Assembly: GCA_965213925.1 (NCBI GenBank)
Contig: OZ243927.1
Coordinates: 2,848,001 to 2,912,000 of the forward strand
Length of the DNA: 64,000 bases
Direction: 5' to 3'
Source of the DNA: Trueperaceae bacterium
Lineage (GTDB): Bacteria; Deinococcota; Deinococci; Deinococcales; Trueperaceae
Positions within the stretch are counted from its first letter, which is position 1. Every line of letters starts with the position of its first letter. The notes under the pieces are model-generated. The model worked only from the letters and a program-made list of their open reading frames with translations. It was not told where the DNA came from and made no database searches. Shown one piece after another: positions 39,909 to 51,992 of the stretch. The position numbers and the translations under genes are program-made.

Positions 39909-39985
<77 letters not shown>

Positions 39986-39990
39986 AAACA

Positions 39991-40020
39991 AACCCCGTCG
40001 CTGACGGGGTTCTTTCTTTT
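39991..40020 (+). terminator. Intrinsic terminator between tRNA operon and convergent integrase
   Basis: AACCCCGTC-GCT-GACGGGGTT followed by CTTTCTTTT. Confidence 0.85.
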
Positions 40021-40037
40021 GCTTGTGAGCTGTGATT

Positions 40038-41318
40038 TCACGGGTTTGGGTCGTTTCCCCCCGCATCTCCCCCCGCCACAGAGCCTAACAAATCCGAGAG
40101 GCTCATCGCCCCCTCGAAGCGGCGGTGTGACAGCACGTGCGTGTACTTGTCGGCGGTCGTAGATTTGCGGCTGTGTCGGAGCCTTTCTGAGACCACGCCT
40201 AGCTCGACACCACGCGCCTGCAGGAGGCTCGAGTGATGATCTCGAAGGTCGTGGAAGCTGAGGTCAGGAACCTTAGCCCTAGCGATGAGCTTTTTATACT
40301 CGCGCAGCAGCGCCCTCGGGTTCTGGGGGGTGCCGCCCCAGCCTGGGAAGACGAGGCCGAACTCGTACCAGCGGTTGCCGAGCTTGTGTTTATGCCGCTC
40401 TTGCCCTTCTCTGTGATTCTCGAGTACGCGCAGGGTGTCCTCGCCCACCGTGATTGACCCCATGCTCTTCTTCGTCTTCGGCGTGTCGAAGAAGTAGCGC
40501 CCGTGCACGTGCTCCATCTTGCGATGCGCCGTTTCATGAAAGCGTTTCGGCACCGCCACTAGGCCGCGGCGCACGTGAATGACGAGGTAACGCTTTTTGT
40601 TGGCGGTCACGGGCTCTAGGTCCGACCATTTGAGCCCGCAGAGTTCGCCCTCGCGCAGCCCGGAGGTCAGCGCGGTGTAGATGATCGGGCAATAGCGAGT
40701 GTGACGTGCGACCGCCAGTAACCTTAATAGCTGATAGCGAGACCAAGGGACAATCTCTTTGGTGTACTCGGAGGGCAGCTCGATCTTAAAGCAGGGGTTG
40801 GCGCGGTCCTCGGGCAATAGCTCATTATGGATAGCATCGCTGATCGCTTTGCGTAAACCGGCGAGCGCGTTTCTCGTGGTGGCCCTGCCGTCGTTGCCCC
40901 GGCCCATCTGCTCGCGGTAGATGTCGTTCACCATCGCCTGCACGTGGACGCGGCGCAGCTTGTCGAGCGGCGTGTGGCCGATTCTCGGGATGACGTAAGT
41001 CCTCAGGCTGTAGTAGTAGTTGCGGTACGCCCCGAACTTCTTGGACAAGGCCGCCTGCTCGAGCCAGCCCTCGAGGTAGTCGCCGAGCCGCTGTTTCGCT
41101 AATGTCTCGAGCGTGCCTTTGGCTTGTAGCTTTTGAAGCCGCAATAGGTCACCCTTAGCCTCCTCCTTCTTGACGCGCAGAGGACCGTCCTTGCTCCTCT
41201 TGCTGTGGCCGTCCCACGAAACGGTGACCCGCGCGTAGTAGCGCACGTAGGAGCTGCCGTCCTCGCGCTTAAAGGCGCGCTTCTTGATGGTCCCTTCCCC
41301 GTTCGCTCGGCGAGCCAC
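40038..41318 (-). CDS. Tyrosine integrase
   Basis: MARRANGEGTI N-terminus; catalytic GLREGE, PKT, FHDLR, LRHS, DKYTH all present. Confidence 0.95.
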   Translation of the reverse strand: MARRANGEGTIKKRAFKREDGSSYVRYYARVTVSWDGHSKRSKDGPLRVKKEEAKGDLLRLQKLQAKGTLETLAKQRLGDYLEGWLEQAALSKKFGAYRNYYYSLRTYVIPRIGHTPLDKLRRVHVQAMVNDIYREQMGRGNDGRATTRNALAGLRKAISDAIHNELLPEDRANPCFKIELPSEYTKEIVPWSRYQLLRLLAVARHTRYCPIIYTALTSGLREGELCGLKWSDLEPVTANKKRYLVIHVRRGLVAVPKRFHETAHRKMEHVHGRYFFDTPKTKKSMGSITVGEDTLRVLENHREGQERHKHKLGNRWYEFGLVFPGWGGTPQNPRALLREYKKLIARAKVPDLSFHDLRDHHSSLLQARGVELGVVSERLRHSRKSTTADKYTHVLSHRRFEGAMSLSDLLGSVAGGDAGGNDPNP

Positions 41319-41806
41319 GCTAGAAAACCTCCGGGTAGCTGTAAGGCTTAGGCAAGACGGCGTCGTTCTGCCTGTTCAATGAGAATGAAAGGATAAAGCT
41401 GCCACACTGAAGCTGCTCAGCTTTTTGAGTAGGCATAGAGGTCCACGATTGTGATATCCGTTTTCTCCAAACTTACTGAACACTGTCTTTCGTTGGCAGA
41501 CCACGGACGTTCTACGTCGTCATAAAAGCACATAAAATTACGTACAGTCAGCCCTATAGCGTTTCTAAAAACGACAGGGGTTGACGTGCGCATTGCTGTG
41601 CCTTGAATGCTAATTCTTAGTTGTTTTTGCAAGCAGGAGCCTTTTCGATTCTACCGCGCTAAAGCTAGAAAAGGGGCGTCTGTCTGACGAACCTCTTAAC
41701 GGGCTACCGCGAAAGACTCTCAGTCGCCTGAGGTGTTGCGCCAAACTTCTACTTTGAAAAGTTCTAAGAGTCTTAGTGTCACCGAATAGACGTCTAGAAC
41801 GGGATT

Positions 41807-41874
41807 GGAACTGACAGTTCCTAAACTGATGTCGGAAGCCAGATCGCCAAAGAAAAATTAGAACCGTCAGTTCC
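41807..41874. promoter_or_regulatory. Paired palindromic operator-like sites
   Basis: GGAACTG-A-CAGTTCC (41807-41821, perfect) and AGAACCG-T-CAGTTCC (41860-41874). Confidence 0.6.
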
Positions 41875-41993
41875 TTCTCAAGCTATAACCGAGTCGGCTA
41901 AAGTCCATGCCAACACGCGCCGGGTTTCGGCTCTATCTCGCCAAAGCCTTGCATCTTGAGCTTCACTTGGACTTTAGGAAAGGAGACTTGGCT

Positions 41994-42334
41994 ATGTCCG
42001 ACAACACGATGGAACCCATCGTCAAACAGGCAGCGTCTCTTCTGGAACTCGTCTTCGACGAGGCGATGCGCCGCGCCAGCGAAAGACACGGGCAGGGCAG
42101 CTCGAGGCTCTCACCGTAGGCGAATCTCTTTGGGTCGAGGGTAGCGAGGCTGTAAAAATTATGGGTGCTGGCTATACCCTGTCTCGCCTCAAGCAGCTCG
42201 GTCACCAATGCGTCATCGTCATGGACAGAAAGGACCCCAACAAGCCCAACAGCCCTTACATCTTCTTGCGTTCGTCGCTCCACGATTACTCGGTGAAACG
42301 CGTCTTCGAACTCGACGAGAGACAAGCACGCTGA
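41994..42334 (+). pseudogene. Excisionase/AlpA-like HTH gene broken by a 5-bp duplication
   Basis: RBS AAGGAG; GGGCA-GGGCA at 42090-42099; removing one copy gives a single ORF with LWVEGSEAVKIMG..YTLSRLKQLG...PYIFLRSSL. Confidence 0.65.
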
Positions 42335-42368
42335 GCGTGCAGACGAAAGCGAGAGAGCGAGGTGCAGG

Positions 42369-43532
42369 GTGATTGACTTGAAAACGTTAAAGACGCGAGT
42401 CGACCTAAGAGCAATAGTTCAAGAAACGCATCTGCTAACGAAGAGTTCGAAGACCTGCTGCCTCTGGCATAATGACACCAACCCGTCGCTCCACATCTAC
42501 CCAGACGGCTATTTCTGTTTTGCCTGTGGTGCTTCGGGTGACCACCTGGACTGGTTGACGGCTACTCGAGCCCTGTCGTTTTCGGAAGCGGTCGAGGTCT
42601 TAGCTCATCACGCCACTACCGTTACTTCCCACTACCCAGTTATACAGGCGGCAAGCCTGGCCGTAACGAAAACAACGTCGTATGAACTTTCCCTAGGAAT
42701 ACCAACTTTTGAGTGGCGCTTACCCTTAAGGCAGCATCAACTCGAGACCCACCAGCGCCGAGTAACTAAACTGACCGAAGTCCCCGAAGCTCTAGCAGGC
42801 CGAGGCTTCACGCTGTCTGATTGCAAACGCCTGGACATCGTCAACGAGAACGGTAACGCCATCTTTCCGGTCATCGGGCCTAGTGGTTTGGCTTTAACTC
42901 TCAAGTGCCGCTACGCGGTTCCAAATCCGCACCGGTACGAATACGTAACACCAGGGCGTGGCACCCCTGCCTGGTGCTCACCCGGCATCCGCCGATCGGA
43001 GACTGTCTTCGTCGTTGAAGGCGAACTTAACGGCATGATGTGCTGGCTGGCCTTGCGAGGTCAGGGTAATCGAATCGGCGTTATGGGCACGGCGGGTACT
43101 AACGGCCTACTTCACCTCGATGTTCTCGAAAACAAAACGTTTTACATCTACGCGGACGGTGATGAAGCAGGTGAAGGAGCGCGGCAACGCTGGGCGAGGC
43201 AGGCGTTTGGTGCGGGTGCAAAAGAGGTGTATGTGCTCGAGCCCTGGCCGATAGACGCTTGCGACATCGCCGGGACCTTCAGCAAAGCAACCTTGCGAAA
43301 ACGTCTAACTTGGAGCCAGAAACAGCGCTTTATTCCCACAGAGTCATTTGGTGCAGTTGGAGCATCCGGTGCAGGAAGGACTGCACTAAAACAAATCCCT
43401 TCCTCATCGGCAAAACCCGATTTGGTGCAGTGGTGCAGTCATAGTAAGGGCGCGCGGCTTTCGAGCGTCCCGAAGCTCCTCCCTAGCTCTCCTCCAACCC
43501 TCACTTTGCAAAGCCGTCATGATGCCGCTTAG
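42369..43532 (+). CDS. CHC2 zinc-finger/TOPRIM primase
   Basis: CCLWHNDTNPS...CFACGASGD; VVEGELN and YADGDEAG TOPRIM motifs. Confidence 0.88.
   Translation: MIDLKTLKTRVDLRAIVQETHLLTKSSKTCCLWHNDTNPSLHIYPDGYFCFACGASGDHLDWLTATRALSFSEAVEVLAHHATTVTSHYPVIQAASLAVTKTTSYELSLGIPTFEWRLPLRQHQLETHQRRVTKLTEVPEALAGRGFTLSDCKRLDIVNENGNAIFPVIGPSGLALTLKCRYAVPNPHRYEYVTPGRGTPAWCSPGIRRSETVFVVEGELNGMMCWLALRGQGNRIGVMGTAGTNGLLHLDVLENKTFYIYADGDEAGEGARQRWARQAFGAGAKEVYVLEPWPIDACDIAGTFSKATLRKRLTWSQKQRFIPTESFGAVGASGAGRTALKQIPSSSAKPDLVQWCSHSKGARLSSVPKLLPSSPPTLTLQSRHDAA
43346..43439. repeat. GGTGCAG iteron-like cluster (candidate origin)
   Basis: ATTTGGTGCAGT at 43346 and 43420, GGTGCAG 43368, TGGTGCAGT 43431, inverted ACTGCACTAAA 43380. 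Confidence 0.7.
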
Positions 43533-44583
43533 CCAAATCAACCTTGAGAGGACCCTGCCCCCGCTCAGGTGGGCAGTCGGTGGGCTCATTTTGCAAGGCT
43601 ACATCAACACGATTGCCAGCTTGCCGGGCGAGGGTAAAACGGCACTTCTAACAGGGCTCGCTTGGCAAGCGTCACGTGAGACTGGGATGTTTCTGAATCG
43701 CCGCGTAGCGCACGGCACGACCCTCTACGTCGACTTCGATGCCCCCGGCGACGGGCGCACCGTGCGCTACTGGCTGGACAAGCACAAGCGCGCCTTTGAC
43801 GATGGTGATATCGGAAAGATAGTGGTGCTCGAGCCCGACCCCAATACTTATGGACTGGCTGAAGGTGAACTCCAAGAACTTACTAAGGTAGCGAAAGAGA
43901 CAGAGGCAAAACTCATCCTCATCGACTCATTCAGCTCGGCTTTCCCGAATGTCGACCCCATCAAGCTCGTTCAGGTTCAAAGCCCGCTCTGGTACCTGCG
44001 CCGTTTGGCAAACGAGACAGGGGCGGCCGTGGTCATCATTGACCACTTACCTAAACCTATCTCGGGTGAGAAGGCGGGAGCGAGGGGCATCATCGGCTCG
44101 GTGGCAAAGTCAGCCCAAGCAAGAGCGGTACACATCTTGTCTCGAGTTCCGCCTAAAGAAGTGGGGGACAGCAACGTCCTCAGGTGGGACACCACCAAGA
44201 TGAGCTACAGCGCCCGGCCGGAACCGATAGGGGTTGAGCTTAAGTTTGATGATGGAGCTGTCTCCATTGAGGTTGTCGACTTACCAGAAGGACAAGGGGA
44301 AACGCGTACCGAGCGGGCTATCCGGGCGATGCAGGATTATCTGGAGACCCATCGTGGGACGGTCGTGCCACATCAAACTCTGATGGAGATAGCGGTCGAA
44401 GAGGCCAACCTGCGCAGGCGCGCCTCGCTAGACGCCACCGGGTTACTCAAAGAGCGCTACGGCGATGAGCTTGTTACCACCTCCTTACCCGGTCGTGGTA
44501 AGCCGCAGGGCTACCGGCTAAAGCTCGAGGACGAGACCACCCCTTCTCTATGTAGTAGACCTCTTGCAAAAGTAGCCTTATAG
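43519..44583 (+). CDS. RecA-fold AAA (AAA_25/RepA-like) helicase, C-terminus cut by IS
   Basis: Walker A SLPGEGKT, Walker B LILIDS, VVIIDH, RGIIGS; last codons lie in the IS end. Confidence 0.85.
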   Translation: MMPLSQINLERTLPPLRWAVGGLILQGYINTIASLPGEGKTALLTGLAWQASRETGMFLNRRVAHGTTLYVDFDAPGDGRTVRYWLDKHKRAFDDGDIGKIVVLEPDPNTYGLAEGELQELTKVAKETEAKLILIDSFSSAFPNVDPIKLVQVQSPLWYLRRLANETGAAVVIIDHLPKPISGEKAGARGIIGSVAKSAQARAVHILSRVPPKEVGDSNVLRWDTTKMSYSARPEPIGVELKFDDGAVSIEVVDLPEGQGETRTERAIRAMQDYLETHRGTVVPHQTLMEIAVEEANLRRRASLDATGLLKERYGDELVTTSLPGRGKPQGYRLKLEDETTPSLCSRPLAKVAL

Positions 44584-45215
44584 CTTCAAAGTAAGGCTAT
44601 GCGATATGAAGAAGTCAAAGGACTAGCACCGGAAGGGTTCAAACGCTTGACAGGGGTAAAGCCGCAGGTGTTTGGCGACATGCTCACAGTGCTGCGAGAG
44701 GCTGAGCAGAGGAAGAAGAAAGCGGGACGCAGCAGCAAGCTCAGCTTGGAGGACAAGTTGCTTTTGGCATTGTCGTATTGGCGTGAGTACCAAACGCAGT
44801 TTCATATAGCGGCGAGTTACGGACTTCACGAGTCCACAGCAAACCGGATTATCGCCAAAGTCGAAGACGTTCTCATTGCTTCAGGCAAGTTTAGCTTACC
44901 TAAACGGCGCGAGGTGGAAGAAACCGAGTGGACCGTCGTGCTTGTGGACGTAACCGAGACACCGATAGAAAAGCCGAAAAAAAGGAGCGACGCTACTTCA
45001 GTGGAAAAAAGCAGCGCCACACTCTGAAGAGTCAAGTGCTTGTGGACGCAAGTGACACGAGGATTCTCTCAACGGCTCACGCGAAAGGTCCCAAACACGA
45101 CTACACGCTGTTCAAAAAGTCTGCGCCGCGCTGTAAGCCCGAAGTCTGGTTCCGTAGGCTTCCGCCAAGGGCGGGAGACGTCGCTGACAGCGGCTACCAG
45201 GGTCTCGCCTCGAGA
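44557..45215 (+). mobile_element. Truncated IS5-family (ISL2/IS702-like) element
   Basis: End AGACCTCTTGCAAAAG; orfA 44599-45027 (FKRLTGV, YWREY, VDVTET); A7 run 44977-44983 shifts to YFSGKKQRHTLKSQ...DSGYQG; then cut, no right end. Confidence 0.88.
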
Positions 45216-46055
45216 CACCTCGGCGGTCACTTCAGCACCTGGGGTGGGAGCGTGCTGACCGATGAGGCGATCGGCTCGAGACCCCTACGCTTTTTCGAGA
45301 CGCTGCTCGTGTACGGGCTGGGTGGTGGCGCATCGCCTCTGCGTATCGCCGTCTCGCTGTGCTGGTTCTCACTTTCGGTTTTAGGGCTGGTAAGTCTACT
45401 CCGAGGGAAGTCCTTTCTTCCTTTAGCTGTGTCGTTTGTCTGGCTCGTACCTTACGCGCTATGGATGTACCTGGGGCATGATGTCGACCTCGCCCGCTAT
45501 CACTTTCCTCTCGTCGCGGGTGCCGTCCTCCTCGCCGGGCTCGGGCTGCCCAAGCAGATGCGAGTGGCGCTACCCGTCATAGGCGTAAGTATCCTCCTCG
45601 TCGGCGTAGTCAGTCTACCCTTAGCGTACCGCCACAGCGTGACGCCCTCGCTGCATCAGCAGGTCGCCAGCTATATCGACCAAAACATGGGCAAAGAGAC
45701 GAGCGCCCTGCTGACGAGCAGTACCGAGCTGCTGCGCTACGCCAAGACCTACGCCAAAGGGCTCTACATCGCGCCTATCGGGGCAGACGCCAAGCTTATC
45801 GAGAGTCGCCTTAGGAGCGTGCAGGGCTGGAAGCCGACTGTGCTCAGCACCTCGTACACGTTGGGGCAGCTGGAGGCGTCAGCAACCGAGGACTGGGTGC
45901 CTATCGCCCGCTTCTGTCAGGACCCTTATTTGCGCTCGCGGGGCGCGTCAGAGTTCGTGCTCTATCAGCATCAGCCAGATGCGCCCGATGTGCCGCTGCC
46001 GGGCTGTGAGTCTCTTTCGGGGCAGCAGGGGGAAATAGCGGCGGGTAAGCGATGA
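45216..46055 (+). pseudogene. 3' part of a multi-TM membrane protein (GT-C-like), fused in frame to the transposase relic
   Basis: After DSGYQGLASRH the ORF becomes hydrophobic, with GHFSTWGG and ARYHFPL loop motifs and a soluble C-domain; junction approximate. Confidence 0.6.
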
Positions 46056-46801
46056 CGCTCTACCTCATGATCCCTTGCTACAACGAAGCAGCGACACTCG
46101 AGGGCGTTCTCCTCGAGCTACCTAGCACAATCCCCGATATCCTACAGCTAAAGGTGCTCGTCGTTGATGACGGTTCTACAGATGAAAGTGCGACTATCGC
46201 TGCGCAGTGTGGGGCAGAGGTGCTGAGACTCGAGCACGTCGGTCTGGCTCAGGCTTACTATGCTGGATTAAGAACAGCCGTGGCTCGAGGGGCGGACTTC
46301 GTCGTCACCCTCGATGCAGATGGGCAATACGACCCAGAAGCGATAGGGAGGATGCTCGAGCCCCTTCTGCAAAACGAGGCGGACATCATCCTAGGCGAGC
46401 GAGGCGAAACCTTCTACAGGCGGCTGAAGCCACGCCGCCGTTTACTGCACCGCTTCGGCGCTTGGGGCGTTCGGCGCGTGACAGGGTTACCTGTTGAGGA
46501 CCCCGTCACAGGCTACCGGGCGTATACGCGAGATGCGATTCAGCGGTTACAGGTCCGCTCACGCTTCACCTACACTCTGGAGATGCTCGTGCAGGTACCC
46601 TTACTCGGGTTACGCCTCGCTTGCATCACGGCTGAGCCGAGACTCCCGACGCGCCCTTCGAAAGTGGTCAAGCATCCGCTCATCTATAGCGCCCGCCAAC
46701 TCCAGACGCTCCTCTGGGCTGCTGTGTACTACCGTTCGACATTACGAGGTATTGAGAACCCTGTAGAGGAACAAGACGAACTCTCGGCGGACTTCGCCTG
46801 A
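46052..46801 (+). CDS. GT2 glycosyltransferase (DPM1/GtrB-like)
   Basis: IPCYNEA, VVDDGSTD, TLDADGQYDP, D..TGYRAY. Confidence 0.9.
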   Translation: MTLYLMIPCYNEAATLEGVLLELPSTIPDILQLKVLVVDDGSTDESATIAAQCGAEVLRLEHVGLAQAYYAGLRTAVARGADFVVTLDADGQYDPEAIGRMLEPLLQNEADIILGERGETFYRRLKPRRRLLHRFGAWGVRRVTGLPVEDPVTGYRAYTRDAIQRLQVRSRFTYTLEMLVQVPLLGLRLACITAEPRLPTRPSKVVKHPLIYSARQLQTLLWAAVYYRSTLRGIENPVEEQDELSADFA

Positions 46802-48288: not shown

Positions 48289-48412
48289 AGTTCACCTCGA
48301 GGCTAAGTTTAGATGGAGCCGTCTGGTGAGGCGAGTAAATTTTGCACTGCGGACAGTGGGAACCGCTTGTGCTCAGTGAGGGTTTATGCGTGAGATGCGC
48401 GCGTGTCTTGCA

Positions 48413-48520
48413 TAATGGTTCATCCAGCAAGTTCGTTGCAAATCATCTGACGCGCTTTTTTCGTCGCTAGCGAGATTAAGCAATTGGAGAGTGGTGAAGG
48501 ATTAACTGGATGACCCAATA
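48413..48520. mobile_element. IS630-derived MITE (108 bp)
   Basis: TA-bounded IRs TAATGGTTCATCCAGCAA / TAACTGGATGACCCAATA (14/18), same motif as IS630 end at 50695-50714. Confidence 0.7.
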
Positions 48521-48580
48521 AGCGCCGCCTAAAGCAACCGTTTCTAATGCCAAAGACGCCCTTCAGGGCGACGCTTCCCG

Positions 48581-48589
48581 TGGTATACT
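48581..48589 (+). promoter_or_regulatory. Extended -10 promoter of leaderless TA operon
   Basis: TGGTATACT 6 nt before ATG 48596, no RBS. Confidence 0.7.
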
Positions 48590-48595
48590 CGCCAT

Positions 48596-48799
48596 ATGGC
48601 CGTCAAGACATCGATGCTCAGCCCAGCCGAGCTAGAACGCCGCCGTGAGGTTGCTCGCTCTGCTGCTGCCCACCTGCGCCTGGAGGGGCTGGCCCCTTCT
48701 GACGCGGCACAGGTGCTGAAAGCGAAGTGGGTCAGCGGAGAGATAGACAAAAAAACCTGGCTCGTCGAACTCAGAGCCTTGCATAATCTGAGTGAGTGA
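48596..48799 (+). CDS. VbhA/FicA-family antitoxin
   Basis: ERRR..A.SA.AHLRLEGL...WVSGEID; overlaps fic by 8 nt. Confidence 0.88.
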   Translation: MAVKTSMLSPAELERRREVARSAAAHLRLEGLAPSDAAQVLKAKWVSGEIDKKTWLVELRALHNLSE

Positions 48800-49613
48800 C
48801 CCCTACCTTCAGCCGAACGGCACCCTCAAGAACAACCTAGGCGTCACCGATCCGCAAGTGCTCAGCCAGCTCGAAGCGGACTTTACCGACTACCGGCTCG
48901 CAACGGTCGAGGAAGACGGTCCCCAAGGTCTTTTCACCTACGCGCGCTTCAAGGCGACGCATCACTACCTCTTCCAAGATGTCTATGCGTGGGCGGGCGA
49001 GCCGCGCATCACCGAACTTTACAAAGCCGCTCAGATAGGCGGGCCGCTGCACCAGTTCACGCCCATCGCTGAACTCGAGGATGAAGCCGAGCGCATCTTC
49101 ACCTCTCTAGCGGAGGTTGACGAGTACCGAGGCTTAGACCGCCCAACCTTCTCTGTACGAGCCGCCAACCTCCTCAGCGACATCAACCAACTCCACCCCT
49201 TTAGAGAGGGAAACGGGCGCACCCAGCGGTTGTTCGTCGAAGCGCTGGCGAAAGCGGCGGGTCACACCCTCGCCTTCGACGTTGTGAGCCGCGAGCGGAT
49301 GATTCTAGCGAGCATCGAAGCCTCGCGAGGGCAGCGCGACATGATGCGGCGGCTCGTGAACGAGATCAGCGACCCCAAGCGTGTCGCTCCGATGCGAGAG
49401 GCGATCTCCTTTCTCGAGTCCGAGTCCTTTAACTGGAACGAGCGCTACCTCGCCACGACCGAGCCGGGGCGACTCTACGAAGGCACCTTTGTAGGACAGG
49501 GCGGCGAACACTTCATGATGCATGACGGGGAGAAGCTTCTCGTGGGCAAGGTGAGTGACCTCAACACGGTGCCTGAGAGCGGGGCGGCAGTTCGGTTTCG
49601 GTCTAGCAGCTAG
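48792..49613 (+). CDS. FIC-domain toxin with C-terminal OB-fold-like domain
   Basis: DPY...GTLKNNLG, HHYLFQDVY.WAG..R, canonical HPFREGNGRTQR; beta-rich tail. Confidence 0.92.
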   Translation: MSDPYLQPNGTLKNNLGVTDPQVLSQLEADFTDYRLATVEEDGPQGLFTYARFKATHHYLFQDVYAWAGEPRITELYKAAQIGGPLHQFTPIAELEDEAERIFTSLAEVDEYRGLDRPTFSVRAANLLSDINQLHPFREGNGRTQRLFVEALAKAAGHTLAFDVVSRERMILASIEASRGQRDMMRRLVNEISDPKRVAPMREAISFLESESFNWNERYLATTEPGRLYEGTFVGQGGEHFMMHDGEKLLVGKVSDLNTVPESGAAVRFRSSS

Positions 49614-49644
49614 AGCGTTGTATAGAGCAAAAAACTCTGAGCTT

Positions 49645-50714
49645 TCTTGGTTCGTCCATTAAAAAGCGCTCACGGTAGGGAGGGCGGCGACGCCAAACTT
49701 ACGCGGCGTGCGGTGGCGTCTTCTTCTGCCCCAAACGTAAGGGTGCTTGTGGTCATTCCAGTAGGCAGTGGCTCTTCGAATGGGCTCAACCATCTCGGTC
49801 CAGACCTCGAAGCGCCTGCCTTTGAGAGCTAAAGAGCGTAACGTCTTCCACCAGGGCTCGGTGAGGTTGAGATACCCCTAGGTGATCGCCGCTAGGCGAA
49901 TCCGGTCCTGTGCCCTGCGAAGCGGGTATTGTCGGTAACCTAGCGTACTTGGGCTGGAAGACGAACTCCCACCTGGGGTGAGCCAGACTAAAAAGGAGCA
50001 CGTCGTAAGAGCTGTGCATGTAGAGATTGTCGATGATGGCGTAGATGTGCTTGACCTCGGGCGGGACCCACTGCTCGACCTTTCCCAGAAACTCGGTATA
50101 GTGCCCGCCGATGCGGCGCGGGACCATCTCAGTGAATACTGCGCCTGAGGCGGGTTCTAATGCGCCGAAGACGAAACCACCTTTCGGGCGATGTGTATAG
50201 TCAAGCGCGACTTTCGCGCGTCCGGCGGGGGGTCCACGAATTTTGGTCAGCTCCTTACCTTCATATGTTCTTGAGGCGAGCGGTCCCATCTCGTCTATGC
50301 AGAGGACGACGCTGTTCTCTGGTGGGTCGGTGTAGAGCTGTAGGGTGGCACCCTTTTTTCAGCGAACTCGGGGTCCACCTTTTGTCCATACCACCCTCCT
50401 TGTTGTCGCCAAAGGTTACCGCCAACGGCGGCTAGCGGGAGCGGGACCACGCGACTTCGCTTTACGCGATCACCTGTCTCGCACTTGAGCTTGCGCCGAA
50501 CTAGCCCCAACGGGCCGCTAGCGGGAACGCGCCACGCGTGACGCTTTGCCCGTTCTAGACTTTGCTTACGCCCATCGTCCGTGAGCGTTCCCAACGCTTG
50601 AGTTCCTATACTCTTCCTCGGTTAGCTGACGAACACGGGCGCAAGGACGCATCACCGACCTCAAAGTGAGGTCCTCAGCTTAGTCCTGAGTCGAATTAAC
50701 TGGATGAGCCAATA
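49645..50714 (-). mobile_element. Degenerate IS630-family element
   Basis: IRs at 49647-49662 and 50696-50714; orfA ATG at 50652; DPEFAEK-GAAAAAAGGG shift; CIDEMGP, IIDNL..H, QPKYA...YLNLTEPWWK; internal insertions and a deletion. Confidence 0.88.
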
Positions 50715-50743
50715 ACGGTCCGAGTTCAGGAGCGCTGAGAGGG

Positions 50744-51718
50744 TCAGATGTCGATGACAACTTTTCCCCGAGCGTGCCCTTTTTCGAGATATCTGATAGC
50801 TTCAGCCGTCTCACTTAACGGGTAGGTCCTGTCTATGACGGGGGCGACTTTGCCGACCTCGAGAAGTTCTTTGATGAAAACCAGGTCCGTCTGGTTCGGT
50901 TTCGCCGCTCCCATAACACCGATCTTCTTCCGCCCCCTCCTAGATACCCACGCCCCCAACAAGGCAACCTGGAGCAGATGAGTTAGGGTGGTAAAGCCGA
51001 CGATGACACATCTTCCTTGGGGACCTAAGGCACGCTCGTAGTCCGAGACCGAACAGTTCCCCACCGCGTCGAGGATCAGGTCGTACGGCTGCCCGCTTTT
51101 GGTGAAGTCCTCTCTCGTGTAGTCGACTACTCTGTCCGCCCCGATGGAGCGCACCAGCTCCAGATTCCGCGTGCTGCACACGCCGGTGACCTCGGCCCCG
51201 AAATGTTTGGCGAGCTGCACCACAAAGGTGCCCACCCCGCCCGAGGCGCCGTTGACCAGCACCTGCTGCCCGGACCGAATCTGTCCCTTGTCGCGAAGCC
51301 CCTGTAGCGCGGTGATAGCTGCCACTGGGACCGCCGCCGCCTCTTCAAAGGATAAGGTACTCGGCTTCAGGGCTAAGGTCTCTTCGCGGGCACAGACGTA
51401 CTCGGCAAAGCCGCCCAACCCGCTGCCGCTCACGTCACCGAACACCTCATCACCGGGCTGAAACTGTGTCGCCCCGCTGCCAACCGCTTCGACGTGCCCC
51501 GCGATGTCCGCCCCGAGAAACGTGTTCTTCGGTCTGCGGAATCCAAAAACAAGGCGGAACGGGAGCGGCGTACCCCTCATGAAGTGCCAGTCGAGCGGAT
51601 TCGCAGCCGCCGCGTGAACCTTGACCAGAACTTCGTCGTCTTTAGGGGCGGGTTTTTCTACCTCCTCGAGCCGGAGCACTTCGGGGGGTCCGTAGTCTGT
51701 GTACACCACCGCTTTCAT
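50744..51718 (-). CDS. NAD(P)-dependent MDR oxidoreductase
   Basis: YGPPEVL, NPLDW, GGFAEY, NGASGGVG, VIDRTYPL, GHARGKVVI. Confidence 0.92.
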   Translation of the reverse strand: MKAVVYTDYGPPEVLRLEEVEKPAPKDDEVLVKVHAAAANPLDWHFMRGTPLPFRLVFGFRRPKNTFLGADIAGHVEAVGSGATQFQPGDEVFGDVSGSGLGGFAEYVCAREETLALKPSTLSFEEAAAVPVAAITALQGLRDKGQIRSGQQVLVNGASGGVGTFVVQLAKHFGAEVTGVCSTRNLELVRSIGADRVVDYTREDFTKSGQPYDLILDAVGNCSVSDYERALGPQGRCVIVGFTTLTHLLQVALLGAWVSRRGRKKIGVMGAAKPNQTDLVFIKELLEVGKVAPVIDRTYPLSETAEAIRYLEKGHARGKVVIDI

Positions 51719-51992
51719 GGCTTCCCTCCGGAATCATGTACGAGTCGTTGTACGCCTATTCGCCGCACTATAGCGCACAGCGTGACCTGAGCTGTGAGGA
51801 GAGGGGCTGGGAGCCTTTTGGCAGCTGACGCATGCGTTCGTCGCAGAAGCCTCTTCTAGTGAAAGCAGATACTTTGGTGGCCGAAGCTCATAAGATTAGA
51901 GTTAGTGTTCTACATACCTGTCTTCTTGAAGCTGGTGAGTCGCCGCGTGCTTTCAGATAGGCTGACCTACAAGAGGCACATGGCGTTCTCTT

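Follow-up and report, generated by a model that had tools for sequence, protein, structure and literature searches.

Phage satellites, such as the phage-inducible chromosomal islands (PICI), the phage-inducible chromosomal minimalist islands (PICMI) and the P4-like elements, are islands of about 10 kb that occupy a fixed site and carry an integrase together with a replication module, but no structural genes. Another small integrative element, ICETh2, has to our knowledge been studied so far in Thermus only. In T. thermophilus HB27, ICETh2 is an 11.3-kb element at a tRNA-Val gene, with a 47-nt repeat and with genes for Int2, Exc2 and Ppol followed by Hel (TTC_0657), and its excision takes place at 1e-4 to 1e-5 (PMC7693054). 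Other Thermus strains contain related elements, of 7.5-12 kb. The same text states that the loss of Ppol raised transformability by orders of magnitude, that a defence role of such 'replication modules' was suggested, and that Ppol was dispensable for replication (PMC7693054).

Here, we analyse a 64,000-nt stretch from the genome of a Trueperaceae bacterium (G000; GenBank assembly GCA_965213925.1, contig OZ243927.1, positions 2,848,001 to 2,912,000), hereafter the window, in which integrase, primase and helicase genes lie behind a tRNA-Arg(ACG) gene. A preliminary description, made from the letters of the window alone, had seen in this locus a self-replicating, satellite-like integrative element. 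Our analysis indicates that positions 39909-44553 are very probably the left part of a decayed Trueperaceae integrative element related to ICETh2. Positions are those of the window unless a contig or locus is named, and the features are collected in Table 1.

Results

An integrative element at tRNA-Arg(ACG)

The integrase gene, described before as intact and just behind tRNA-Arg(ACG), is indeed full length: its stop codon lies 52 bp downstream of the tRNA gene, and the catalytic R, H-x-x-R and Y residues are retained in the translation, read by eye. It matches Phage_integrase (6e-14) and Phage_int_SAM_3 in Pfam and an integrase family in PHROG (4e-50), and its protein is 97.7% identical to the copy in G137, a genome of another genus. 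The 43-nt attachment (att) core corresponds to 39940-39982, that is, to tRNA positions 32-74. Since the tRNA-Arg genes of relatives do not encode CCA and have another 3' flank, the CCA encoded in the window tRNA-Arg and the flank behind it are element-derived. Two palindromes, GGAACTGACAGTTCC and GAACCGTCAGTTCC, stand at the beginning of the module shared by four copies; they may be operators or origin sites.

In the two other genomes of the genus, G001 and G002, the Ser-Ser-Arg tRNA cluster has nothing related to the integrase, primase or helicase behind it, and the genes are thus not a syntenic possession of all relatives. This comparison is limited to the immediate tRNA-Arg flank. An empty site defined by synteny had to be given up, as the three genomes of the genus are too rearranged and the DNA behind tRNA-Arg maps to three different places. 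Against G137, the module has 88-94% nucleotide identity, while ordinary genes have about 69-74%. The run of integrase, small gene, primase and helicase at the tRNA-Arg of G137 is 90.5% identical at the nucleotide level, and the tRNA-Arg gene together with its 52-nt spacer is 100% identical. These comparisons support an insertion at tRNA-Arg, and not a piece of core genome. The family to which the module belongs is real and mobile, given the empty sites in the same genus, the approximately 90% identical copy in another genus and the six intact elements described below.

Backbone of the relatives and decay of the window copy

The reference copies were L030 (in G005) and L031 and L032 (both in G137), all from another genus and with about 90% protein identity, together with L035 and L036 from Trueperaceae metagenome-assembled genomes; a single-protein scan of the genome contigs gave three Trueperaceae loci. 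Their common backbone consists of a 111-aa gene, a primase of 385-422 aa, a helicase of 374-394 aa, a protein of about 256 aa with three HTH_17-like repeats (HTH, helix-turn-helix), and a DUF418/Acyl_transf_3 membrane protein of 374-396 aa, the last apparently frameshifted in L036. The three copies of about 90% identity have primases of 387-407 aa and helicases of 386-387 aa. An integrase stands ahead of the backbone in L031 and L032; only fragments of one are present in L036, no integrase lies beside the tRNA-Trp of L030, and the short contig of L035 did not yield one.

The window copy departs from this backbone inside the helicase. The AAA helicase named in the preliminary description stands as to its family, with an AAA_25 match and a GEGKT Walker A motif, but the gene is not whole: homology ends at about 44554, and 10 unrelated codons take the place of the last 35 or so residues of the relatives. 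The three copies of about 90% identity cease to be similar in nucleotides at 44549-44554, as do four full-length relatives (386-387 aa), and a remnant of an insertion sequence (IS) of the IS5 family begins there. This remnant is the left part of such an element and is itself truncated near 45220. A 2241-nt contig of the public sequencing run X1 covers 44408-46500 with zero differences, and therefore the helicase-IS5 junction is not peculiar to the assembly. The genes for the 256-aa protein and the DUF418 protein, present behind the helicase in each of the five related copies, are absent here. The 256-aa gene has no match anywhere in the whole genome, and of the element-type DUF418 gene the whole genome holds only the last 100 nt or so, at the start of contig C6; a DUF418 paralogue, 42% identical, lies elsewhere on contig C1.

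Contig C6 is 15.9 kb long and opens (C6:1-102, L037) with this DUF418 tail, which has 88% nucleotide identity to the other copies; a DDE transposase comes next. An assembly gap may conceal a second, partial copy of the element or a variant of it from another strain. In addition, runs X1 and X2 hold contigs about 88-90% identical to window 41840-44650 at a depth of about 130-160, against about 20-40 for contigs identical to the window, and related elements are therefore common in the sampled community. The four public runs are available as contigs only and are silent on circles or excision.

The small gene between integrase and primase has decayed as well. The open reading frame (ORF) at 41907-42119, called xis-like in the preliminary description, proves to be a fragment that overlaps a frameshifted 111-codon gene beginning at 41994. 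A 5-bp insertion near 42090 destroys the frame after codon 34, and the other 77 codons lie in a different frame. The relatives have the 111-aa gene preceded by a ribosome-binding site, GGAAAGGAG. Among the contigs of run X1, those with a depth of about 43 of 212 do not have the 5-bp deletion and so agree with the window, and the more abundant relatives, about 90% identical, are without the 5-bp insertion. The protein has no match in Pfam, PHROG or NCBIfam, to xis and HTH families or any other, its comparison with the HTH_17 gene at the equivalent position in L042 gave an hhalign probability of 0.3%, and a profile search of the PDB returned nothing meaningful, and we dropped the assignment as an excisionase. 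An AlphaFold2 model (mean predicted local distance difference test, pLDDT, 66) has as best Foldseek matches MarR-type winged helices (E 0.05); its order of elements, beta-alpha-alpha-beta-beta, is compatible with a winged helix and proves nothing.

A probable displaced right end

A search that allowed up to three mismatches found the tRNA 3' end only once in the window, and there is no convincing long direct repeat either. A second copy had been proposed as the place to look for attR, and the genome does contain a single one, a perfect 43-nt repeat at C1:238190-238232, although on the opposite strand and outside the window. The sequence past it (GCGCATTACGAAAAGAACGT...) resembles the native tRNA-Arg flank of G001 (GCGCATTAAAGAAAAGACGT...), while the tRNA flank in the window differs from the native one and is 100% identical to that of the G137 element. 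On the other side of the repeat, L001:10190-11238 has 84% nucleotide identity to the right end beside the tRNA-Arg core in G137. The DUF429-like protein of this right end is 95% identical to that of G137 over 221 aa, or 89% over 257 of 290 aa by tblastn; its gene is truncated at the N-terminus and fused to a beta-lactamase-like pseudogene.

The two places also share a motif. The double octamer CCCCCCGC-N3/4-CCCCCCGC has only two occurrences in the 4.75-Mb genome, one 74 bp after the attL core and one 104 bp before the displaced core, in equal orientation relative to the core, and these octamers probably are arm-type sites of the integrase. G137 likewise carries both the left and the right part. 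Because of the native flank, the G137-like right end, the shared double octamer and the pairing in G137, we infer that attL in the window and attR at C1:238190 are the two ends of one element. The distance between them is 2.65 Mb, or 1.93 Mb in the other direction if the chromosome is taken as a circle, and they are inverted with respect to each other; no IS copy is present at the attR-side junction.

Partial tRNA-Arg(ACG) att cores that are inverted relative to the tRNA-Arg gene occur in all three Trueperaceae genomes examined. G137 (C2:4942627-4974736; L032, L033) has a tandem array of three elements in which both extra cores are inverted; one element belongs to this family, one has a 405-aa integrase and one a frameshifted integrase. 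G005 has a 12.4-kb element between two inverted cores (C1:1096716-1109162, L017), 2.9 Mb from its tRNA-Arg.

Primase, helicase and relation to ICETh2

The CHC2/TOPRIM primase of the preliminary description is borne out. Its CHC2 zinc ribbon matches Pfam (3e-14) and, among solved structures, best the DnaG of Aquifex (2au3, 1.6e-9), and Toprim-like E-G and D-G-D motifs can be read by eye in the translation. It matches only the DnaG zinc ribbon and dnaG families, not the Prim-Pol group of archaeo-eukaryotic primases (AEP), and the protein is 86% identical to the G137 copy. For the helicase, a profile of seven family members has RepA of RSF1010 (1g8y) as its best solved match, a weak one (E 2e-4). 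Like the IncQ plasmid RSF1010, the element has a separate primase and a RepA-like hexameric helicase; unlike RSF1010, its primase is unrelated to RepB' and it is integrative rather than a plasmid, and no RepC-like initiator was identified in it.

The helicase is present in 20 of the 151 sampled genomes of the order. Its spread is patchy, with 3 of 36 genomes in group f1, 5 of 36 in f2, 0 of 23 in f3, 8 of 36 in f4 and 3 of 19 in f5 (G000 excluded). Nine of 11 distant helicase loci have a tRNA gene and an integrase match; six of these contain an element whose ends are marked by a direct repeat of the tRNA 3' end, with sizes of 8.7-13.3 kb (Table 1). The repeats measure 46-48 nt, except for 75 nt in L042; among the loci without a repeat, L041 and L050 reach the contig end and L049 does not. 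The distant elements share the helicase (all) and a tyrosine integrase (most, in divergent forms) and otherwise nothing. ORFs in these high-G+C relatives were called by length and by G+C content at third codon positions, and details may err. The collection of primase and helicase neighbourhoods, which had been suggested as a check, thus yields a family with integrase, primase and helicase and without virion or conjugation genes.

The Trueperaceae copies encode a DnaG-like primase, and so do L043, L044 and L047. In a presumably Thermus-like genus, g20, all three loci have a Prim-Pol (PF09250) gene or fragment upstream of the helicase, immediately adjacent in L041 and L051 and at a distance of about 1 kb in L049; the integrase lies beside the tRNA in all three, and a 46-nt repeat was found in L051 only. 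Against the AAA_25 genes after Prim-Pol in g20, the helicase has 34-53% identity by tblastn. Named helicase homologues come from Thermus, Meiothermus, Calidithermus and Deinococcus, those of Thermus, Meiothermus and Deinococcus at 42-50% identity. Judged from sequence, the primase appears to be exchangeable across the family, either DnaG-type or Prim-Pol.

The preliminary description had placed the element in a class possibly little described in the phylum, which no longer holds: ICETh2 of T. thermophilus has the same layout (PMC7693054). Both are small elements at a tRNA gene (7.5-12 kb in the published set, 8.7-13.3 kb in the family here), with a tyrosine integrase at one end, a primase gene and then a helicase gene. 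Both have a 45-50-nt direct repeat of the tRNA 3' end, in our case in the six intact relatives and not in the window copy, and both contain many hypothetical ORFs and an occasional toxin-antitoxin pair, without transfer machinery of their own. In contrast to ICETh2, the primase here is DnaG-type rather than an AEP Prim-Pol, the genes run divergently from the integrase instead of converging on it, the backbone includes the triple HTH_17-like protein and the DUF418 protein, and this copy is broken. We file the window element as ICETh2-like with a putatively swapped, non-homologous primase, a class assignment by architecture.

Some accessory genes recur around these loci. A MazF/PemK toxin gene with an upstream HTH gene adjoins the integrase or the tRNA in L042 (2261-3126), L045 (10839-11593) and L030 (7020-7831). 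Directly downstream of the helicase, a 125-aa protein that strongly matches the TubC_N docking domain is encoded in two Deinococcus-like loci, L043 (9509-9889, 3e-14) and L047 (8938-9315, 6e-11), a slot that is taken by the 256-aa HTH_17-like protein in the Trueperaceae copies.

Virion, packaging and transfer functions

As reported before, no capsid, terminase, relaxase or conjugation genes are to be seen. Among 25 ORFs scanned with Pfam over 40-64 kb there was no match to capsid, terminase, portal, tail, relaxase or type IV secretion system (T4SS) families, and among nine window ORFs scanned with PHROGs none to virion or transfer families; virion genes just beyond the element, which would have pointed to an ordinary degraded prophage, were likewise lacking in the 40-64 kb scans. 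Pfam gave no relaxase, T4SS or FtsK/TraB-type translocase in the window ORFs, in L032 or in the scanned ORFs of L042-L045, L047 and L051, and no virion or transfer family in 77 ORFs from five intact elements (L051 was scanned separately). With PHROGs, 70 ORFs were mostly without a virion or transfer match, the exceptions being in L044, L042 and L045.

The exception in L044 (8134-8766) matches PHROGs of the small terminase subunit (TerS; best 1.6e-10). Its homologues match Pfam Sf6_terminase below threshold in 11 of 19 cases (best 5e-6), the six top Foldseek matches of its AlphaFold2 model (pLDDT 72) are all Sf6 TerS (E 0.05-0.18), and the fold comparison by VIA gave Z 6.1 for Sf6 TerS, about 1 above the TetR rows, a weak signal. 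Of the 151 genomes, 5 have this TerS-like gene, and it adjoins the helicase in G088 only. In the other two elements, L042:7914-8465 matches a PHROG annotated as tail protein (2.5e-14) and L045:4465-7140 matches tape-measure-type PHROGs.

Like phage satellites, the family combines an integrase and a replication module without virion structural genes, and it includes the TerS-like gene of L044. Unlike them, the window and the Trueperaceae backbone show no gene that would divert the packaging or capsid assembly of a helper (such as TerS, Cpm, a capsid-size gene, Ppi, Psu, Sid or Delta), nor was one found in L030, L031, L032, L035 or L036, and the TerS-like gene stands beside the helicase in one genome. 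The satellite-like character once ascribed to the locus thus reflects gene content only. The 111-aa and 256-aa backbone proteins had no terminase match. We also discarded the 256-aa protein as a TerS candidate, since hhalign against the TerS-like alignment gave a probability of 3%; in the atlas it resembles HTH_17, AlpA and excisionase-family proteins, with a borderline score of 0.90. When the helicase alignment was run once against viral contigs, no relative turned up, which is no evidence either way, and a literature search on phage satellites and Deinococcota found no satellite report for the phylum among the papers listed. We know of no helper phage or induction for the element. A satellite lifestyle appears to be a live lead for one Deinococcus-like lineage and is unsupported for the element in the window.

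Table 1. Features of the window, of the displaced right end and of the intact relatives
Feature	Position	Strand	Remarks
tRNA-Arg(ACG), attL	39909-39985	+	ARAGORN; two tRNA-Ser genes precede
GC-rich hairpin, terminator-like on both strands	39991-40011		between tRNA and integrase stop; 100% identical in G137 copy
Tyrosine integrase, 426 aa, full length	40038-41318	-	Pfam and PHROG matches
Double octamer CCCCCCGC-ATCT-CCCCCCGC, candidate arm-type site	40057-40076	+	within 3' end of integrase gene
Small ORF upstream of integrase, 71 aa	41417-41632	-	G137 copy: 76% over 38 aa
Palindromic sites GGAACTGACAGTTCC and GAACCGTCAGTTCC	41807-41874		starts 54 bp apart
Small backbone gene, pseudogene here	41994-42334	+	111 aa in relatives; comparison with their copies
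DnaG-type primase, 387 aa, full length	42369-43532	+	CHC2 zinc ribbon, Toprim-like motifs
RepA-like AAA_25 RecA-fold helicase, truncated	43519-44583	+	AAA_25 1.6e-20 (Pfam); Walker A motif
IS5-family remnant	44553-45220	+	transposase profile positions 3-215 of 285; single copy in genome
Fic/VbhT-like gene	48792-49613		within block 48377-50715
IS630-like element, multicopy	49644-50715		adjoins Fic block
Element right end	G000:C1:238190-239245	inverted	DUF429-like gene, arm motif, 43-nt tRNA-Arg repeat, then native tRNA flank
Intact element at tRNA-Lys	L043		8.7 kb
Intact element at tRNA-Asn	L047		11.4 kb
Intact element at tRNA-Trp	L044		12.1 kb
Intact element at tRNA-Thr	L042		12.3 kb
Intact element at tRNA-Ala	L045		12.6 kb
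Intact element at tRNA-Arg(TCT)	L051		13.3 kb

Discussion

In the mechanism that we propose for this family, the integrase would recombine a tRNA 3' half borne by the element with the chromosomal tRNA gene. The element-borne copy would extend from the anticodon loop to the discriminator base, 43-48 nt, so that the tRNA 3' end would be rebuilt by the element at attL and a partial tRNA copy would be left at attR. The excised circle would then be copied by its own primase and RepA-like hexameric helicase, and its transfer would depend on a helper or on DNA uptake by the host, because no virion or conjugation genes are carried. The copy in the window would be unable to excise as a unit, as an integrase working on two inverted att sites would flip the chromosome segment and not release a circle. 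The self-replicating integrative element of the preliminary description is therefore no longer one in this genome: its small gene is frameshifted, its helicase truncated, two backbone genes are missing, and its attR is displaced and inverted.

One could still see here an intact self-replicating, satellite-like island that runs from tRNA-Arg through glycosyltransferase, DedA and Fic cargo. This would agree with the intact integrase and primase, with the strain-specific DNA at 45.2-48.5 and 51.9-64 kb relative to the two same-genus genomes, and with the lack of virion or transfer genes. We regard it as very unlikely, given that the window has no attR and the true right end lies inverted at C1:238 kb, that the helicase is cut exactly where the IS5 remnant starts and the small gene is frameshifted, that the two conserved post-helicase genes of the relatives are absent, and that the Fic block, which has a 97% identical counterpart in G001 and lies beside a multicopy IS, forms a unit of its own. 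Even harder to accept, and in our view extremely unlikely, is an ordinary degraded prophage that has lost its structural genes. A phage-type integrase at a tRNA gene and the matches to PHROG primase and helicase families would be expected of it, but head, tail, terminase and lysis families have no match in the window, on the attR side or in the 9 kb downstream of the G137 copy, and the six intact relatives, with 8.7-13.3 kb between their repeats, are too small for a tailed phage. Somewhat different is the idea that integrase, primase and truncated helicase form a fixed remnant kept for the host, maybe against incoming DNA, as is reported for Ppol of ICETh2. In its favour, the integrase and the primase, with 97.7% and 86% protein identity to G137, are full length despite the surrounding decay, and the work on ICETh2 reports raised transformability upon Ppol loss and possibly defensive replication modules (PMC7693054). 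Recent arrival would explain the conservation equally well, the helicase that should act with the primase has lost its end, and Ppol belongs to a different primase family; we thus consider a host use improbable.

A decayed element related to ICETh2 remains by far the reading that we prefer, and several points weigh against it. Within the Trueperaceae subfamily we found no fully intact copy whose two ends stand in direct order, an inversion parts the G137 copy, too, from its right end, and in L036 and L030 an attR or an integrase is not recognisable. The assignment of the right end at 238 kb to this element, rather than to a tandem neighbour, is something we infer from the features listed above. 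The link to ICETh2 is drawn from the architecture in g20 and from named homologues of 42-50% identity, and the primase is DnaG-type and not Prim-Pol as in ICETh2. Finally, the tight conservation of the integrase (97.7% protein identity) suggests that some function may persist.

It is tempting to speculate that the integrase-primase-helicase elements at tRNA genes in Deinococcales make up one helper-dependent 'hitcher' family with swapped primases. The TerS-like lineage would then be satellites, the others would move by competence or transjugation, and the inverted att cores would come from the integrase working on tandem arrays. We consider this scheme doubtful. If true, such elements would drive large chromosomal inversions, and the satellites of the Deinococcus-like TerS lineage would be the first in the phylum as far as we know.

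For the window itself the result is mostly corrective, as the element is a wreck and the adjacent surface and Fic genes should not be counted as its cargo. Beyond it, ICETh2 appears to have relatives in Deinococcus-like and Trueperaceae genomes, with a shared helicase and a shared logic of tRNA integration and with a non-homologous primase. This primase swap would amount to a natural experiment on what the primase is for, which is informative because the work in Thermus found Ppol dispensable for replication. The tRNA-Arg(ACG) site of Trueperaceae holds arrays in tandem as well as inverted att cores, which connects small integrative elements with large rearrangements, and the TerS-like gene in one lineage is a concrete starting point for a search for phage satellites in the phylum.

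Neighbouring genes

To the right of the IS5 remnant follow a fragment of an ORF of unknown family, a GT2 glycosyltransferase gene, a gene for a DedA/VTT protein, two unknown ORFs, the Fic (VbhT-like) gene, the multicopy IS630-like element, a duplicated alcohol dehydrogenase gene, a gene of the beta-lactamase family, an Opp/Dpp-type ABC transporter, Lnt and a two-component system. The region from 45.2 to 48.5 kb has no DNA match in G001 or G002 and that from 51.9 to 64 kb has paralogue-level matches only, and both are therefore accessory DNA. The surface-modification and toxin/defence genes had been taken for cargo of the element, a view that finds no support here: the GT2, DedA and Fic genes lie past the IS breakpoint, outside the backbone of the relatives and without att sites to bound them. 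The Fic block has 97% identity over 48520-49645 to a copy at another place in G001, where about 80% is usual. Together with the 21-nt direct repeats on its two sides (48501-48521 and 50695-50715), this points to a separate mobile unit.

Other defence-related and accessory genes accompany the copies in G137. Beside the second copy in G137, past its integrase, L031:14281-17591 contains a pair resembling the cyclic oligonucleotide-based antiphage signalling system (CBASS), of a patatin phospholipase and a SMODS cyclase, and an ImmA/IrrE-HTH pair, and a BTAD-AAA-TPR protein of the STAND type (signal transduction ATPases with numerous domains) follows the backbone of L031. In L033 (11581-13194 and 18261-19800), the neighbouring 14-kb element of the array has a gene of the thiol-activated cytolysin family and an M15 peptidase gene, and SRA-HNH and HNH genes lie past the array. 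In the window, the zinc alcohol dehydrogenase gene at 50714-51847 has duplicates at C1:2692784-2693917 (99.7%) and on contig C6 (93%).

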